Assembly (NCBI GenBank): GCA_965221165.1
Contig: CBDCRP010000003.1
Coordinates: 672,001 to 736,000 of the forward strand
Length of the DNA stretch: 64,000 nucleotides
Reading direction: 5' to 3'
From: a bacterium
GTDB lineage: Bacteria; UBA8248
In this document: in pieces, positions 11,562 through 55,456 of the stretch
Layout of the letters: the number at the start of each line of letters is the position of its first letter
How positions within the stretch are numbered: position 1 is the stretch's first letter
Translations under genes and position numbers: made by a program
Notes under the pieces: generated by a model
The model's input: the letters and a program-made list of their open reading frames with translations, nothing else
Database searches by the model: none
What the model was told of the DNA's origin: nothing

Positions 11562-12508
11562 CAAAATGCTCCTTCATCAAGGATATCCTTCGGCAGCATC
11601 GCGTGAACGCCTTTGACACCATTCACAATCTGCGTGATGCGCAGATCCACGGCCAAGCTGCACAACGTATAGGCATCATCTTTGCTCATGCCACACAATT
11701 TCCCCAAAAACTTGATTGTCTCCCTGAGAGCCATTTTGGCTGCGTTATCAAGAATAGGGTCGAATCCCATGAGGATATGATGCGTGGCCGTCTCTGCGCG
11801 GGGCATCTCCAAGTTCAAATCTTTTCGGACAATGAGTTCGACTCTTGCGGACATACCGCATTCCAAGGCCGACAGACAGCTCTCTCCATCCCCTTGGCAG
11901 CCGTGTCCATCGCCTATGGCGAACAAAGCGCCATCCTGGAATACGGGAAGATAGGCGCGAGAACCCGCGATGAGTTCCTTGTTGTCCATATTTCCTCCCC
12001 AGATTCCCGGAGGAGTGGATGGAACACGACCAAAATCATCAGGTGGAGCCACACCAAAATTACCGAAATAGGGCCTTAGCTGCACCTTCACGCCTGCTCC
12101 CCAGTCACCCGTATTCGCCTCTTTGTCAATTTCCACAATCACCGTTCTTGAATATGGGAAATCCTCGGGCAAACCACCCGCCAGGGGCCGAATCACGTTA
12201 AAGCCCCAGTCATAGCGCGGCCAAACATCCAGAAACCTCACTTCCAGGACATCGCCCGCCACGGCTTCTTCCACAGCAATGGGTCCCGTGAGGATGTGGC
12301 CGCCTAAGTCTCTTTTTCCACTCTCAGCGATATGACGCAGGTTTTCAGACGCTCTTTCTCGAATTGGAGATTCAAGGGTCCGGATCCCCGGTTCCGTATG
12401 AACTTCGAGCACATCGCCCGAAGCCACGGTGAGAACCGGAGAAAGATCGGAATCATAATAACCCCACTGAATGTTGTCGGGGTTTTGCGTAATCACGTGC
12501 TCGGGCAA
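11561..12508 (-). CDS. acetamidase/formamidase family protein (paralog 2)
   Basis: HILTGPI, GGNMDNKEL, GDGHGCQGDGE. Confidence 0.9.
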   Translation of the reverse strand: MPEHVITQNPDNIQWGYYDSDLSPVLTVASGDVLEVHTEPGIRTLESPIRERASENLRHIAESGKRDLGGHILTGPIAVEEAVAGDVLEVRFLDVWPRYDWGFNVIRPLAGGLPEDFPYSRTVIVEIDKEANTGDWGAGVKVQLRPYFGNFGVAPPDDFGRVPSTPPGIWGGNMDNKELIAGSRAYLPVFQDGALFAIGDGHGCQGDGESCLSALECGMSARVELIVRKDLNLEMPRAETATHHILMGFDPILDNAAKMALRETIKFLGKLCGMSKDDAYTLCSLAVDLRITQIVNGVKGVHAMLPKDILDEGAF

Positions 12509-12533
12509 CGATGGCCCCTTCTAAAAATGAAAC

Positions 12534-13469
12534 TCATTCAAATAAAGATTTGGGCAGCATGGCGTGAACGCCCTTGGTGCCGTTCACAATTTGAGTGACG
12601 CGCAGATCGACCGCCAAGCTGCACAATCTGTAGGCATCATCGGGGCTCATGCCGCGAAGCTCACCCAGGAATTGAATCGTCTCCCGTAAAGCCATCTTCG
12701 CCGCATTATCCAGAATCGGGTCAAAACCCATCAAAATGTAGTGAGATTCCGTTTCCGCGCGCGGGATTCTGATGTTCATGTCCTTGCGAACGTTCATCTC
12801 GAAAGTACCGATGAGGCCCATCTCTATCCCGTTGATATTCGCCTCACCGTCCCCCTGGCAGCCATGCCCGTCTCCCGCCGAGAATAATGCGCCTTCGTTG
12901 AAAATCGGCAAATAAATCGTCGAACCGGCCGTAAATTCCTTACAATCCGTGTTTCCTCCCCACTCCCCGGGCGGAAACGTGGGCACACGCCCAAGCGCTG
13001 ATGACGGCGCTACTCCGAAATTCCCGAAAAAAGGCCCGAGCGGCACCTTGACCCCTGCTCCCCAGTCCCCCGTGCCGCTTTCCTCGTCAACCTCGACAAC
13101 CACCATTCTCGTATAAGGGAAATCCTCCGGCAGACCGCCCACCAAGGGTCTGAATCCGTTATAGCCCCAATCATAGCGGGGTTTGACCTCATGAATCTTG
13201 ATTTCCAGCACGTCGCCGGGTTCGGCGCCCTCGATGGCCACGGGACCCGTCATAATATGCGCCCCAGGGCTCGGGGACATGGTCTCCAGAATTTTTCTGA
13301 GATTTCCAGAAAGTCTCTCTGGATGCTTTTCCAAAAAATCTTTCCGCCCTGATTCGGTTTTCACGACGAGCGTATCGCCGGAAGCTATCGTCAGGACGGG
13401 AGCAAGGGCGGCATCATAAAAACCCCAATGGCAGGTATCGACAGTGGTATCCAGTTCGTGCGTGGCCAC
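12534..13469 (-). CDS. acetamidase/formamidase family protein (paralog 1)
   Basis: HIMTGPV, GGNTDCKEF, GDGHGCQGDGE; AGGAGG SD. Confidence 0.9.
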   Translation of the reverse strand: MATHELDTTVDTCHWGFYDAALAPVLTIASGDTLVVKTESGRKDFLEKHPERLSGNLRKILETMSPSPGAHIMTGPVAIEGAEPGDVLEIKIHEVKPRYDWGYNGFRPLVGGLPEDFPYTRMVVVEVDEESGTGDWGAGVKVPLGPFFGNFGVAPSSALGRVPTFPPGEWGGNTDCKEFTAGSTIYLPIFNEGALFSAGDGHGCQGDGEANINGIEMGLIGTFEMNVRKDMNIRIPRAETESHYILMGFDPILDNAAKMALRETIQFLGELRGMSPDDAYRLCSLAVDLRVTQIVNGTKGVHAMLPKSLFE

Positions 13470-30557: not shown

Positions 30558-30632
30558 GGGCCGTTAGCTCAGTGGCAGAGCGCTGCCTTCACACGGCAGA
30601 AGTCACTGGTTCAAATCCAGTACGGCCCACCA
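30558..30632 (+). tRNA. tRNA-Val (CAC)
   Basis: Cloverleaf; anticodon arm CTGCC-TTCACAC-GGCAG; GGTTCAAATCC; encoded CCA. Confidence 0.95.
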
Positions 30633-50303: not shown

Positions 50304-51112
50304 AAAAAGGCGAAAAGCGAAACCCAGGCGTTGGCGTGGACAAGTCTTCATCGTCCCGGCGCGGATTCATGAAAATGCTCCTTGGCCTCGCCTCCGTATT
50401 CATGGCCGGGTGTTCCCGCCTGAACGAAGAGCCCAAGGTGCAGGCCGTCCTCAGTTGGTTCGATCGCCTGAACCACAAGGTGGGCCTCATGACGGACAGC
50501 AACCACCGACTGGCGCGCACCTACCCCAGAAGCGCCGTTCAGCCCGAACAAATGCGGCCCAACGGCTCGGTGGTCTCGCCGAACTCCCAGCTCATCCAGA
50601 CGCCCCCCGAGAAGTGGCGCCTCGTCGTGGGGGAAGCCCATCTGCAAAAGGGCCGGATGATGAAAAGACACTGGGCCAGGGAATACACGCTTGCGCAGCT
50701 TCGCGAGATGCCCGTTCTCGAGCAGACGGTGGAGCACGTTTGCGTCGAGGGCTGGAGCGCCATCTGCCACTGGCAGGGAGTGCACCTCGCGCGCTTCATC
50801 GAGATGCACAAGCTCAGGCCCGAGAGCCGCTACGTGTTCTTCCTGTGCGACGACATGCTCGCCACCGCGAACGGGCACGAGCGCTACAGCGTGACGTTCG
50901 ACTTAAAGCAGGCGATGCACCCGCAGAACGTGCTGGCGTATGAATACAACGGCGAGACGCTGCCCGTGAACCACGGCGCTCCCATCCGCCTCGCCTCGCC
51001 CGCGAACGTGGGCTGGAAGAGCGCGAAATTCCTGCGCTACGTCTTTTTCACGAACGAGGACCTGGGCGGATTATGGGAGAAGCAGGGGTATCCGCGCTAT
51101 TATGGATTCTGA
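50300..51112 (+). CDS. sulfite-oxidase-family molybdopterin oxidoreductase, Tat-exported putative lipoprotein
   Basis: SRRGFMK twin-Arg, MAGC, HVCVEGWS Mo-ligand Cys, HGAPIRL, GWKSAK, WEKQGY. Confidence 0.88.
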   Translation: MKKGEKRNPGVGVDKSSSSRRGFMKMLLGLASVFMAGCSRLNEEPKVQAVLSWFDRLNHKVGLMTDSNHRLARTYPRSAVQPEQMRPNGSVVSPNSQLIQTPPEKWRLVVGEAHLQKGRMMKRHWAREYTLAQLREMPVLEQTVEHVCVEGWSAICHWQGVHLARFIEMHKLRPESRYVFFLCDDMLATANGHERYSVTFDLKQAMHPQNVLAYEYNGETLPVNHGAPIRLASPANVGWKSAKFLRYVFFTNEDLGGLWEKQGYPRYYGF

Positions 51113-51221: not shown

Positions 51222-51296
51222 TCCGGCGTAGCTCAACGGCAGAGCAATCGGCTGTTAACCGATGGGTTGTAGGTTCGAATCCTACCGCCGGAGCCA
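51222..51296 (+). tRNA. tRNA-Asn (GTT)
   Basis: Cloverleaf; ATCGG-CTGTTAA-CCGAT; GGTTCGAATCC; encoded CCA. Confidence 0.95.
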
Positions 51297-51425
51297 GGAA
51301 ATACTATAAGTATTTGATTTTATTATCCTTAATAAATAGAAAGAAATGTCCGACCCACCATTCGGCCCACGAAGAATTACTGAATAATGGGCATCCGGCA
51401 CCAGTGAAAAGACGGAGAAGTGCAA

Positions 51426-52058
51426 ATGAGTGTGTTTCAGGCCAATTGTCCGTACTGCGGGACAAAAGCCGTTGCATTTAAGATCGTTACAAGCCGACGA
51501 GTGCAATCGAGGACAAATAATCGGTGGGACTCTCTCGCGACTTGTGGATTCTGCACCCGCGGGATACTCGCGACCTTCGAGACGCTACAAACCAATACCA
51601 TTCCAGAAAAACTACTGGATTCAAACAGGGATAACGAAGTGGAGCTAAAGACGATTTCTCCATCGCCGCCAAGTACGGGAGCCCCAGCAGACACGCCTCC
51701 CAGGGCTGCGAACTACTACAGGCAAGGAATGGAAAACCTACGAAACAACTACGACGCCCCCGGCAGCATGTTTAGGTCAGCACTAGAGGCCGGCCTAAAA
51801 GAGAAATTTCCGGACATCGACGGCTCGTTGTACGAACGGATCGAGAAAGCGGCGAACCAACAAGGTTTGACTCCTGACTTGGCTGATTGGGCACATCGGA
51901 TTCGGCTCGATGGCAACGACGCGGTACATGGCGACGAGGAATTCTTGAAGGAGGATGCGGAGCGTCTTCACGCCTTCACCGAACTGGTCTTTCTATATCT
52001 GTTCACCTTGCCCGGGATGTTGGAGAAGGCCCGGGACGAACAGACGGATGGCGGCTGA
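51426..52058 (+). CDS. DUF4145 domain protein with N-terminal Zn ribbon
   Basis: CPYC..CGFC; MFRSALE, LYERIE, IRLDGNDAVH (RxxGNxxxH). Confidence 0.8.
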   Translation: MSVFQANCPYCGTKAVAFKIVTSRRVQSRTNNRWDSLATCGFCTRGILATFETLQTNTIPEKLLDSNRDNEVELKTISPSPPSTGAPADTPPRAANYYRQGMENLRNNYDAPGSMFRSALEAGLKEKFPDIDGSLYERIEKAANQQGLTPDLADWAHRIRLDGNDAVHGDEEFLKEDAERLHAFTELVFLYLFTLPGMLEKARDEQTDGG

Positions 52059-52084: not shown

Positions 52085-52942
52085 TCAAACGCCGTTTTTC
52101 GCTTTTTCGAGGGTGGCGACGTTCATCGGGTGCGCATTGCGGCGGCGTTTGTCGAAGCGGACGCCCAAACGCGCGGCCTCGGCGAGACTCAAGCCCGCTT
52201 CTCGCAATTCGTCTCGGCTGAACCCCTTGCCGGGCCTCCATTCTCCGCGCGCATCTCTCACGAGAGCGGAAAATCCATTTTGCGTGGCAAGCATTTCCGA
52301 TGGTTCATTCGGCTGCTCCCGAGGCGGGTCGGCGGCAACCTCGATGAGCGTCGAGAGCCCATCTTCCCCGGACGGTTCGGGCTCATCCGGCAATTCATCC
52401 GAGACCGCTGCCGCCAAGGGTTCCTCATGCGCAGGGGCGAGGTCGCCGGTAATTTCCGGTTCGCTTTCCTGAGGGATATCCGGCCCGGGTGCAGACGCCT
52501 TCACAACGCTTTCAGCCACAGCCGGGACGGCATCCTCATGCTCTTGCGGCGGCTCAGCCTCATCAGGCAAATCACTTGATTCCGGCGCAGACAAAACCTC
52601 GAAGTCGGCCCCATATCCTCGAGGTGGCTCGGGATCGTGAGAAGGCTCAAGTTCATTCGGCGACTCGTCTGCTCCCGACGCCGCCAGCAATTCAAAATCG
52701 GGGCCATAGTCTTTTTCCTGCATATCCATCCCGCTCCTCGAATCGGAGCGCGTTTGTTCACCGGAAGCCAATAAATCGAAGTCAGCGCCATATCCGCTTT
52801 CCTCCGCCCCAAGTGCGGAATCCGGGGATTTTCGCTTGACGGCAAAAGGCGGCGGGATTTCATACCCCTCTTCCCCCGGCCCGGGGGGTGCGGAGCGCTT
52901 GGAGCCGGCGATGCGGTTTAAGAGTTTCTTTCTGATTTGCAT
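52085..52942 (-). CDS. acidic repeat protein with C-terminal ribosomal protein eL13 (L13e)-like domain
   Basis: RPGKGFSRDELREAGL...LGVRFDKRRRNAHPMNV matches the L13e RxGRGFSxxELxxAG..G..D.RR pattern; AGGGG SD. Confidence 0.7.
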   Translation of the reverse strand: MQIRKKLLNRIAGSKRSAPPGPGEEGYEIPPPFAVKRKSPDSALGAEESGYGADFDLLASGEQTRSDSRSGMDMQEKDYGPDFELLAASGADESPNELEPSHDPEPPRGYGADFEVLSAPESSDLPDEAEPPQEHEDAVPAVAESVVKASAPGPDIPQESEPEITGDLAPAHEEPLAAAVSDELPDEPEPSGEDGLSTLIEVAADPPREQPNEPSEMLATQNGFSALVRDARGEWRPGKGFSRDELREAGLSLAEAARLGVRFDKRRRNAHPMNVATLEKAKNGV

Positions 52943-53195
52943 GCCCCCTCTTTCAACTCAGAAATTCATTGCGTGGATAATCTCTCGTCGAGGTATTACA
53001 GGGGGGGCGGTAACAAAACTGGATAGGCTACGGGTTAAAACTAACGATTCCAGAGGCTCGCTGTCAAGGCGCTCGCTCCCGAGCGCGCGCATGCGCCGGG
53101 GATGATCATCGGCGCGGGACGTCCACGAGGACGGGCGAATGCGCCCTCCTCCGTCAGTCCGCTTTTATCCGCCCCCCCTTGGCGCCGGTTGTATT

Positions 53196-53513
53196 CTATC
53201 CATCCCCCTGATGGATGGTTCTCAGGTCTCGCTCGAGATCTTCAAGGTCGTATTGGGCCGGCGCTTTTCTCGCGCGGGCATAATCCGTCATCTCCCACAA
53301 GGACACCCCGGCATCGCGAGCGGCCCGCGCGAGCGTGAGCTTTCCATCCCCGTACAGCCGGACGTAGTGCTCCAGCTTCCATTGCCGGATCGCGCTCGAG
53401 AGCAGCCGGCGCACGGTGGTTGAACGATCGGACTGCTCCACATCCTCGATGAGTTCCAATTCGCGGACCAACTCCAGGGGGAGTCTGGCGCCCACCATCC
53501 GTTCTTTCTTCAT
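53196..53513 (-). CDS. UPF0175 family putative antitoxin (RHH + HTH)
   Basis: VGARLP, DRSTTVR, YGDGKLTLARAARDAGVS, EDLERDL; ATGA overlap. Confidence 0.75.
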   Translation of the reverse strand: MKKERMVGARLPLELVRELELIEDVEQSDRSTTVRRLLSSAIRQWKLEHYVRLYGDGKLTLARAARDAGVSLWEMTDYARARKAPAQYDLEDLERDLRTIHQGDG

Positions 53514-54025
53514 CTCTTCGCCTCCCGTGCGAGTCTCAATACTTCCACCACGACGGCCGGGGAGAGCCATAATATCCGAGTGATATCCCGAATCGTGGCC
53601 TCGAATTCTCCCAAGTCAAGGTATCCTCGCAAGTACGCTTCCAACAATGCGCCGACGGCGCCCAAGTGTTCTACCCCGACCGCCGCGGCCACGCTTCGGG
53701 CTTCCTTGTCATCAGCGATCAGTCGCAGGCCCCGCAGGTCCGCGAGCGCGATGGACTCGGCCTCCCCCCGGTCCAGCCGGGAGCGCCCCATCAGCCGTTG
53801 CATCAGGTCTTGCTCCTCGGCGGTCAAGCGCACCGTCCGCAGCCAGCCGTCTTCCATAGCGGTCTCAAGTTGTTCCACGCCCAGGGCGCGAACAACCCTG
53901 CCGGTATCGATTGTCTCCTCCTTCACGACAGCCCCTATCAGCACCTCGCCGTAGAGTTCGTTCAAGAGTCCCAGACGCCCGAGCTTGGCGAGGACAATCA
54001 ACGAAGAGGCGTCGGCTACGATCAT
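53510..54025 (-). CDS. DUF3368 / PIN domain putative toxin
   Basis: IVADASSLI, LDRGEAESIALA, ADDKEAR. Confidence 0.85.
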   Translation of the reverse strand: MIVADASSLIVLAKLGRLGLLNELYGEVLIGAVVKEETIDTGRVVRALGVEQLETAMEDGWLRTVRLTAEEQDLMQRLMGRSRLDRGEAESIALADLRGLRLIADDKEARSVAAAVGVEHLGAVGALLEAYLRGYLDLGEFEATIRDITRILWLSPAVVVEVLRLAREAKR

Positions 54026-54152: not shown

Positions 54153-54914
54153 TCAGGCTCCTACCTCTTCCGCCAACTCCTCGGCGGTTTGTGCGATGAG
54201 CGCGATGTCCTGGGGTCTCGAGAGCCTGTGATCCCCATCCTTTACGAGCGTCAGGCGCACGTCGTCGCTTTTGAGGGCGCGCGCCAGGCGTAAACTCGTT
54301 TCCCACGGCACGCTCTCATCGCGCATCCCGTGGATGAGGCGAACGGGGCAAGCGAGCGGGATATCATCGCGCAGGAGCAGATGGTTCGCTCCCTCCTCGA
54401 GCAGTTTCCTGGTGATGGGGTATGGCGCCTCGTATTCCGATTCACGCATGAAGTACCCCTGCGCATCGAGTTCCCGCCGCGTGGCTTCGGCGAGCGCGCT
54501 GCGTATCAAATCCTCGGTGAAGTCGGGGGCCGCCGCCACTCCCACGATGCCCTCCACGCGCCCGGGCCGTGCCAGGGCGGCGAGCAGCATAATCCATCCG
54601 CCCATGCTCGATCCGACGAGCACCTGGGGACCCCGGGCGACGCGGTCCAGTATCGCGACGGCATCCTCCGCCCACTCCCCGATGGTTCCCTCCTCGAATT
54701 TTCCCGAAGATTCCCCGTGGCCGCCGTAATCGAAGCGGACGTAGGCGCGCCCCACCTCTCGGCAATGCGCCTCGAGCGCACTCGCCTTCGTCCCGCTCAT
54801 GTCCGAGTGAAAACCGCCCAGGAACATCAGGCCGGGAGATTTCCCCTCCAGCCGGAACCAGGCGAGCGAAGTCCCGCCCGGTCGAGAGAGGAAACTCGAA
54901 GCGGCGTCAGCCAT
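54153..54914 (-). CDS. alpha/beta hydrolase (ABHD10-like)
   Basis: GFHSDMSGTKA, GSSMGGW, APDF, GDHRLS. Confidence 0.9.
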   Translation of the reverse strand: MADAASSFLSRPGGTSLAWFRLEGKSPGLMFLGGFHSDMSGTKASALEAHCREVGRAYVRFDYGGHGESSGKFEEGTIGEWAEDAVAILDRVARGPQVLVGSSMGGWIMLLAALARPGRVEGIVGVAAAPDFTEDLIRSALAEATRRELDAQGYFMRESEYEAPYPITRKLLEEGANHLLLRDDIPLACPVRLIHGMRDESVPWETSLRLARALKSDDVRLTLVKDGDHRLSRPQDIALIAQTAEELAEEVGA

Positions 54915-54922
54915 TTTTCGTT

Positions 54923-55456
54923 CTAGGATGATTTCTTGAGATGTTCGAGCAAACGAGCGGGGACGCCCCGGACCGCAGCTTCCGCCGCTTCGTCCAGGCA
55001 CCGCCCATCCTCGTCGAATACCTTATGGACGCTCCCGATGGAGGCCTGGCCGGGCAGAACTTCTCCGCCGATATGGGTGAGAATGTGTCTTAAGTGCGAT
55101 AGCGCGTTGTCCGCGCTCGGCCCCATCGCCACACCCAGGATGGCGATGGTCTTGCCCTCGAACGTCGAGGGGTAGCCCAGGTTGTCTATAGCCAGTTTGA
55201 GCGTGCTGCTGATGCTGCCGTGATACTCGGGCGTCGCGATGAGGATTCCCGCCGCCCCCGTCACCAAACCTTTCAGCATCTCGGGGTCTTTCGATTCGCT
55301 CGGCTCTCCGGGCAGGGGCAAATCCAGATCGCCCAGATGCACGCGGGTGATCTCGAAATCACCCTCCCCCAACTCGTCGAGCGCGAGCGCAAGCGCCTTG
55401 TCCGTATTGTTTTGCGGCCTGCGACTACCGCCGAACACGAGAATATAGGGGGGCAT
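54923..55456 (-). CDS. NADPH-dependent FMN reductase
   Basis: GSRR, ATPEYHGSIS..LK..ID. Confidence 0.9.
   Translation of the reverse strand: MPPYILVFGGSRRPQNNTDKALALALDELGEGDFEITRVHLGDLDLPLPGEPSESKDPEMLKGLVTGAAGILIATPEYHGSISSTLKLAIDNLGYPSTFEGKTIAILGVAMGPSADNALSHLRHILTHIGGEVLPGQASIGSVHKVFDEDGRCLDEAAEAAVRGVPARLLEHLKKSS

Follow-up and report, generated by a model that had tools for sequence, protein, structure and literature searches.

Why does a bacterial genome encode a protein that ends in a domain resembling eL13? eL13 itself counts as a hallmark of the archaeal and eukaryotic ribosome, and to our knowledge its fold has been described solely from ribosomal proteins of these two domains of life. 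The gene that raises the question lies on the minus strand of the 64,000-nucleotide stretch of DNA analysed here (the window), where an open reading frame at 52085..52942 encodes an orphan protein of 285 amino acids followed by a stop codon. Its start ATG is at 52942, and the purine-rich sequence AGAGGGGG just upstream is a plausible ribosome-binding site. The source genome (3.69 Mb in 3 contigs, 96% complete) carries bL12 on the same contig as the gene and is therefore bacterial, which bears out the claim of an initial annotation, made from the sequence alone, that an eL13-like domain occurs here in a bacterium. The locus is also not chimeric, since its gene order recurs in 14 other assemblies and a public 1227-base contig, probably from the source sample, spans positions 52126-53352 without differences. 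The related loci belong to Nitrospinota MAGs.

We delimited the C-terminal domain (residues 222-285; 52088..52279, minus strand) from HMM matches, model confidence, fold matches and invariant alignment columns. The Pfam eL13 model (PF01294, Ribosomal_L13e) matches the 285-residue protein with 32.2 bits against a cut-off of 24.9 (E 1.2e-7), a match limited to residues 235-271 and model positions 62-98 of 180. The NCBIfam model of archaeal L13e, NF008914, matches residues 232-280 (model positions 25-73 of 83) with 52.3 bits (E 3.3e-14), a score that falls short of its equivalog cut-off of 96 and so sets the protein apart from eL13 proper. Homologue searches recovered 84 proteins at E<=1e-3, the query itself counted, and a 30-member family profile searched against PDB sequences gave 67 matches at E<=1 (best E 4.9e-9; Pyrobaculum eL13 at E 7.6e-7), all of them eL13 among the matches listed (the best 60 of 67). 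The family alignment contains 29 invariant columns, 23 of which fall within the C-terminal domain and include W235, R236, G238-R243, D264-N269, H271 and N274, and the composition of residues 223-285 gives a net charge of about +6.

The predicted structure points the same way. AlphaFold2 run on the family alignment models residues ~225-285 with pLDDT >90 as two short strands, forming a β-hairpin, and three helices. Foldseek returned eL13 chains alone among the top 50 rows, with E values from 1.4e-3 to 1e-2, none of which reaches 1e-3, and compact alignments of 60-70 columns at an rmsd of 2.2-3.0 Å; the fold was settled by a VIA-align structure search, in which eL13 chains are the only match to the domain. 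eL13 itself has been classed under CATH 1.10.10 in one published table (PMC11354259). The Nitrospinota protein thus shares with eL13 (PF01294/NF008914) a core of ~60 residues, a β-hairpin followed by three helices, and the pattern GxGFS...EL..AG...D.RR..H..N. Since HMM, PDB-profile and Foldseek matches all point to eL13, the likeness is real and specific. The initial annotation had called the last ~60 residues eL13-like; the C-terminal peptide that it quoted is present, and by sequence and predicted fold this stretch is a true eL13-type domain, homologous on its sequence matches to archaeal and eukaryotic eL13. The comparison ends with the core. Whereas eL13 of archaea and eukaryotes is a small basic protein in its own right, the Nitrospinota protein holds the eL13 core alone, at the C-terminus of an acidic bacterial protein with a pI of 4.41, and we found no ribosomal or translation genes linked to the gene at the locus.

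The remainder of the protein consists of an N-terminal peptide and a long acidic arm. The conserved basic peptide (residues 1-20; 52883..52942, minus strand) was defined by alignment and charge; it carries a net charge of +6 and is modeled with a low-confidence helix at residues 3-12. Conservation at >=90% in the family alignment includes R10, K15, P22 and P30-32, the last of these in a nearly invariant IPPP stretch. The arm that follows (residues 21-221; 52280..52882, minus strand) is acidic, Pro-rich and predicted to be disordered on the basis of composition, length variation and a pLDDT of 41-54 for the residues before ~225. Residues 21-222, for which the model gives no strands, contain 51 Asp or Glu and 29 Pro and have a net charge of -42, in agreement with the initial annotation, which had described about 220 acidic, Pro-rich, probably disordered residues ahead of the domain. 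This middle region differs in length among orthologues, with repeats gained or lost across the family alignment, and an ESM Atlas search with residues 1-222 gave no usable match.

Within the arm we identified three copies of a motif of the form Y-G-[AP]-D-F-[DE]-[LV]-L, all on the minus strand: YGADFDLL at residues 51-58 (52769..52792), YGPDFELL at residues 79-86 (52685..52708) and YGADFEVL at residues 110-117 (52592..52615). Across the family, 82 of the 84 members carry a family-wide form of this YG motif (0-4 copies per protein), and in the source genome the motif is repeated in the eL13-domain reading frame only, with 3 single matches among 21,036 other open frames. The AlphaFold2 model places neither the motifs nor the tail against the eL13 domain. 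A match of the YG motif to eukaryotic linear motifs of the LIR, SIM or clathrin-box type suits some family members only and was dropped.

The same C-terminal domain is found in a second and much larger setting. It ends proteins of 764-930 amino acids at four loci (L022-L025) from Thermodesulfobacteriota, Gammaproteobacteria, Rhodothermales and Multivoraceae, which score 18.9-28.4 bits against the Pfam eL13 model, two of the four above cut-off. A search with one of these large proteins recovered at least 426 proteins at E<=1e-3 (8000 candidates scored), which span several phyla, and no functional name is attached to any of the 120 matches listed. The genes form two-gene modules (L022:5391-12390; L023:5841-12368; L024:5484-12390; L025:5889-12417; L027:4959-11202). 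The first gene encodes a protein of 660-930 amino acids in which a basic N-terminal helix leads into acidic disordered sequence, then into a chain of Ig-like domains and finally into the eL13-like end, and the second encodes a helicase of ~1400 amino acids with DEAD, Helicase_C and MrfA Zn-binding domains. The helicase gene lies directly downstream in all five loci examined, starting about 8-17 bases before the stop codon of the first gene, and is split into two frames in L023. Four of these five helicases were tested, and all four score as PADLOC DruE (E 1e-153 to 1e-160); Pfam detects no nuclease domain in these DruE-like, YprA-family helicases. We modeled one member of the large family on 61 aligned sequences, namely 60 taken from the 120 listed matches and the protein of one same-genus genome, G023, and obtained an all-β chain of β-sandwich domains followed by a three-helix end domain (pLDDT 86.9), for which the best fold matches are the Ig chains of titin and contactin. 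In one large protein (P0091), residues 418-498, which form the last Ig-like domain, match the phage virion structural family phrog_2155 (E 4.9e-11).

Comparison of the Nitrospinota protein with this large Ig-chain family (L022-L025, L027; P0085-P0204) reveals a shared outline and a different build. Both have a C-terminal domain with a Trp signature, in both a basic helix at the N-terminus precedes acidic disordered sequence, and in one same-genus genome a large member occupies the very tRNA-Asn slot in which the short gene lies. In contrast to the large proteins, the Nitrospinota protein has no all-β body of ~450-500 residues, and its gene has no helicase partner; a RAZR-like gene and tRNA-Asn lie downstream instead. 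The YG motif is absent from the large family, with strict matches in 0 of 120 large proteins and loose matches in 1 of 120 (mean of shuffled sequences 0.35), and the N-termini of the two families are not detectably homologous (hhalign probability 1.6%). Descent of the short gene from an Ig-chain gene by deletion is therefore unproven. The copy in same-genus G023 has no more than 49% identity over 45 residues, in an alignment whose match starts after the Trp-bearing hairpin.

An upstream Ig-chain gene paired with a nuclease-less DruE-like helicase appears by analogy to resemble the layout of Druantia type III (DruH-DruE), in which two genes likewise encode an Ig-like partner with a C-terminal domain and a YprA-family helicase. 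Excerpts of two preprints describe E. coli DruH as a protein of Ig-like domains and a C-terminal domain that holds ssDNA between Ig5 and the C-terminal domain (10.64898/2026.05.12.722862; 10.64898/2026.05.12.724681), and an excerpt of a further paper describes a Druantia III-like branch with helicases that mostly lack a nuclease (PMC12458937). The parallel is architectural only, because the large relatives match neither PADLOC models nor solved DruH by sequence. At E<=0.1, PADLOC returned nothing for the 285-residue protein or four large relatives, and the search of a large relative against PDB sequences yielded eL13 chains and three chance-level Ribonuclease 3 rows, with no solved DruH. The helicases of the large relatives, at ~1400 amino acids and with no nuclease domain by Pfam, are a further point of difference from Druantia type III, and the Nitrospinota protein itself has no defining part of that system except the terminal domain. 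The excerpts of these three sources make no mention of an eL13-like domain (10.64898/2026.05.12.722862, 10.64898/2026.05.12.724681, PMC12458937), and a search of the full-text literature found, among the matches listed, no paper on such a domain in bacteria or in Druantia-type systems.

From which pool did the Nitrospinota gene draw its domain? The initial annotation had proposed cross-domain transfer and repurposing as an RNA-binding or ribosome-interacting factor, and a reading of this kind holds that an archaeal eL13 gene moved straight into the bacterium, was extended by an acidic tail and today acts as a regulator bound to the bacterial ribosome or to rRNA. That the domain obtains its best score with NF008914, the model of the archaeal short form (E 3.3e-14), is in keeping with that proposal, as is the presence of archaeal-type short proteins among the domain matches. 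A 65-residue domain query matched 337 representatives at E<=1e-3, of which the short family fills the top 16 (E 3e-20 or better). The best match outside the family is a large protein of 689 amino acids (P0215; E 3.1e-13) vs E 4.3e-9 for the best archaeal-type short protein, so the nearest relatives are large bacterial proteins; after P0215 the matches are a mix of long proteins and proteins of 55-160 amino acids. Ten clusters were looked up (nine short ones and P0215), three of which are named: two are archaeal (Hecatellales and Thermococci) and the third is a 'large subunit ribosomal protein L13e'. The Trp that precedes GxGF by three residues (W235 here) is typical of the bacterial forms, being present in 79 of 79 family proteins and 112 of 146 large bacterial proteins vs 6 of 79 archaeal-type short proteins.

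Phylogenetic analysis with archaeal eL13 leans the same way without deciding the matter. In a tree of 214 non-redundant domains from 339 extracted (58-59 columns), the short family forms one clade (SH-aLRT 99), which lies within a larger cluster (SH-aLRT 85) made up of 97 long rows, 8 short ones and 9 of intermediate length. Constrained trees that group the family with long proteins or with archaeal-type proteins both score above the free quick tree. In the final topology test, which used 49 rows (5 family, 22 long and 22 short, with three long-branch rows dropped), the tree grouping the family with long proteins is better by 6.7 lnL (p-AU 0.73 vs 0.27), and the AU test does not discard the archaeal grouping; a fast constrained search with 97 rows gave the reverse order, family and archaeal-type proteins together being better by 15.9 lnL. 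Because the domain is common in bacteria, P0215 is the best match, the Trp is shared and the tree signal, though weak, leans to the large proteins, a fresh archaeal transfer is not needed: most likely, judging from these sequence comparisons, the domain reached the Nitrospinota gene from a bacterial pool rather than from archaeal eL13. We consider the archaeal route, together with ribosome docking, unlikely. eL13 does bind rRNA in solved ribosomes, which favors the docking part of that proposal; against it stand the strongly acidic character of the whole protein and a locus with no linked ribosomal or translation genes, and the occupation of the same slot by the large form in the same-genus genome G023 further argues against the archaeal route.

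The slot itself is a variable one. It opens on the 3′ side of a tRNA-Asn gene (GTT; 51222..51296, plus strand), which also borders the slot in relatives, and its conserved far border is an alpha/beta hydrolase gene identified by Pfam (54153..55001, minus strand). At 14 related loci the eL13-domain gene has the hydrolase gene on one side and tRNA-Asn on the other, with a gene for a molybdopterin oxidoreductase beyond the tRNA, and the hydrolase border is kept in five of five further genomes. The slot is empty, with the hydrolase gene abutting tRNA-Asn, in a genome of the same genus (G033; L035:4204-4394) and in one of another genus (G039). Other same-genus genomes hold different cargo: an HNH-domain protein in G025 (L033:4093-5739); DUF6998 and an unknown 428-aa protein in G034 (L034:4334-6289); and in G023 a 660-aa protein with an eL13-like end, whose gene overlaps that of a DruE-like helicase of 1425 amino acids, together with a nucleoside transporter. 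Since its occupants differ among relatives, the 3′ side of tRNA-Asn is a variable site for accessory or defence-type cargo. Elsewhere in the window, ARAGORN calls a tRNA-Pro(GGG) at 50482-50558 (minus strand) inside the molybdopterin oxidoreductase reading frame, probably a false positive because Rfam gives none at gathering score, and the G+C content rises from ~0.49-0.55 (positions 1-27000) to ~0.57-0.64 (positions 28000-64000), with a step near 27-28 kb, shortly before a tRNA-Val (30558-30632), that may mark the border of another island.

Two RNase-type modules flank the gene, as the initial annotation had proposed, and both proved to be variable insertions. On the tRNA side, a reading frame at 51420..52058 (plus strand) encodes a Cys4 zinc ribbon and a HEPN-type DUF4145 domain (Pfam 51.4 bits), with a weak match to PADLOC PD-T7-4 (E 1.2e-3) and a strong match to phrog_1305 (E 2.7e-33); a zinc ribbon with DUF4145 is given, in an excerpt of the source, as the architecture of RAZR, an abortive-infection RNase (PMC13017515). 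This RAZR/PD-T7-4-like gene occurs in none of 25 related loci, and in public contigs of two runs, which skip ~760 bases, the tRNA side runs straight into the 3′ end of the eL13-domain gene; together these observations mark it as a recent, strain-variable insertion of ~760 bases beside tRNA-Asn. On the hydrolase side lies a toxin-antitoxin-type pair of a UPF0175 gene (53196-53570, minus strand; Pfam 39.8 bits) and a PIN-like gene (53510-54025, minus strand), for which PIN models score below their cut-offs. Of the 25 related loci, 9 have a full-length UPF0175 gene and 4 a full-length PIN-like gene, and remnants occur at others; in relatives UPF0175 thus often stays intact where its PIN-like neighbor has decayed or disappeared. 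Both flanking modules are co-resident cargo and not partners of the eL13-domain gene.

We next determined the range of the family in 51 Nitrospinota genomes. Of the 22 other genomes of the same genus, 18 gave a match, vs none of the 29 genomes that represent 14 other genera. In G023, which is counted among the 18, the match is confined to the end domain of a 661-aa frame, and the short family is therefore present in 17 of 22 same-genus genomes, in each case with intact frames and in 1-3 copies per genome. The short family is confined to one Nitrospinota genus. A whole-genome scan with PF01294 matched none of the 14 control genomes, which included four archaea, and is thus a scan without a positive control. 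Intact frames, invariant columns and the conserved motif count for selection, and on this sequence evidence the gene is a real, lineage-specific accessory gene. The opposite reading, that it is a decaying and functionless remnant of an Ig-chain/eL13-domain gene, draws on the terminal domain being all that is common with the large family and on other decaying cargo in the slot, such as the PIN remnants; we regard it as extremely improbable given frames that stay intact in up to three copies per genome, the invariant residues of the domain, the conservation of N-terminal peptide and motif, and the plausible ribosome-binding site before the start.

Additional copies of the gene in relatives lie among Mutator, IS1595, DDE_3 and IS110 transposases (L011:4352-5620; L019:3576-7293 and 11570-12706; L021:10551-14051) and adjoin an ankyrin-repeat protein (L019) or autotransporters (L011 and L021); across the extra copies at L010, L011, L018, L019 and L021, no neighbor is common beyond pairs. 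Such surroundings bring up a putative link of the gene to phage conflict. Under this reading, which overlaps the one we prefer, the protein would be an orphan sensor, decoy or regulator in conflicts with phages or mobile elements, derived from a Druantia-III-like partner and acting alone or with an unrecognised effector. It accords with the tRNA-flanking slot, which holds the RAZR-like gene and the PIN/UPF0175 pair here and an HNH protein or a DruE-like system in relatives, with a domain that also ends the helicase partner family, with a fast-evolving middle region of variable repeat number, and with the extra copies among IS transposases. We nevertheless rate it as tentative and rather unlikely, since neither a protein query nor the PADLOC DruE3 model finds a DruE-like helicase in the 96% complete source genome, PADLOC and PHROGs give no match for the protein or its domain, viral contigs contain no relative of the protein, no neighbor is conserved across the extra copies, and most of the genus keeps the gene stably in the same place, as defence cargo seldom is. 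As the source genome has no DruE-like helicase, a role in defence would need to work without DruE.

The ankyrin-repeat gene near one extra copy and the autotransporters near others bear on a further reading, in which the bacterium is putatively host-associated and the protein is 'eukaryote-like', its eL13-type domain and acidic-hydrophobic motifs mimicking host components. A fold that is otherwise archaeal or eukaryotic would suit such a mimic, as would short motifs repeated in an acidic disordered region, which resemble eukaryotic linear motifs. We judge this very unlikely, because the nearest relatives of the domain are bacterial and we saw neither a signal peptide nor linkage to a secretion system.

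The reading that we prefer, to which we assign a probability of roughly 0.55, is that the protein is a nucleic-acid-binding module on an acidic, motif-bearing tether, with a domain drawn from the bacterial pool, and not a structural protein of the ribosome. The protein comprises three parts: the basic N-terminal peptide, a polyacidic, Pro-rich tether of ~200 residues with three YG motifs, and the basic eL13-fold domain of ~60 residues. The conserved Arg/Lys/His surface of the domain (GKGFS...DKRRRNxH) may bind the backbone of a nucleic acid, either RNA or ssDNA, by analogy with eL13 in ribosomes and with the C-terminal region of DruH and its ssDNA. The acidic tail would then serve as a flexible arm, and its repeated motifs may attract a partner or shield the basic ends. 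In a bolder version, which we hold to be improbable, the eL13 fold would be the nucleic-acid-sensing end module of a large, undescribed Druantia-like branch of bacterial immunity that pairs an Ig-chain sensor with a nuclease-less DruE-like helicase, and the Nitrospinota protein a copy of that module cut loose onto a polyacidic, motif-bearing arm, a stalk-like 'tentacle' that docks on rRNA, ribosomes or ssDNA and recruits partners via YGxDFxxL.

For the Nitrospinota gene itself the pay-off is the smaller one, as it is an orphan restricted to one genus whose role we infer. It follows from these data that bacteria widely carry the eL13 core fold as a mobile module, attached mainly to partners of Druantia-type helicases, and that one lineage has rebuilt this module into a new acidic tether protein. 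They offer a testable handle on what the eL13 fold may bind outside the ribosome and on how an abundant, unnamed helicase-linked pair works.
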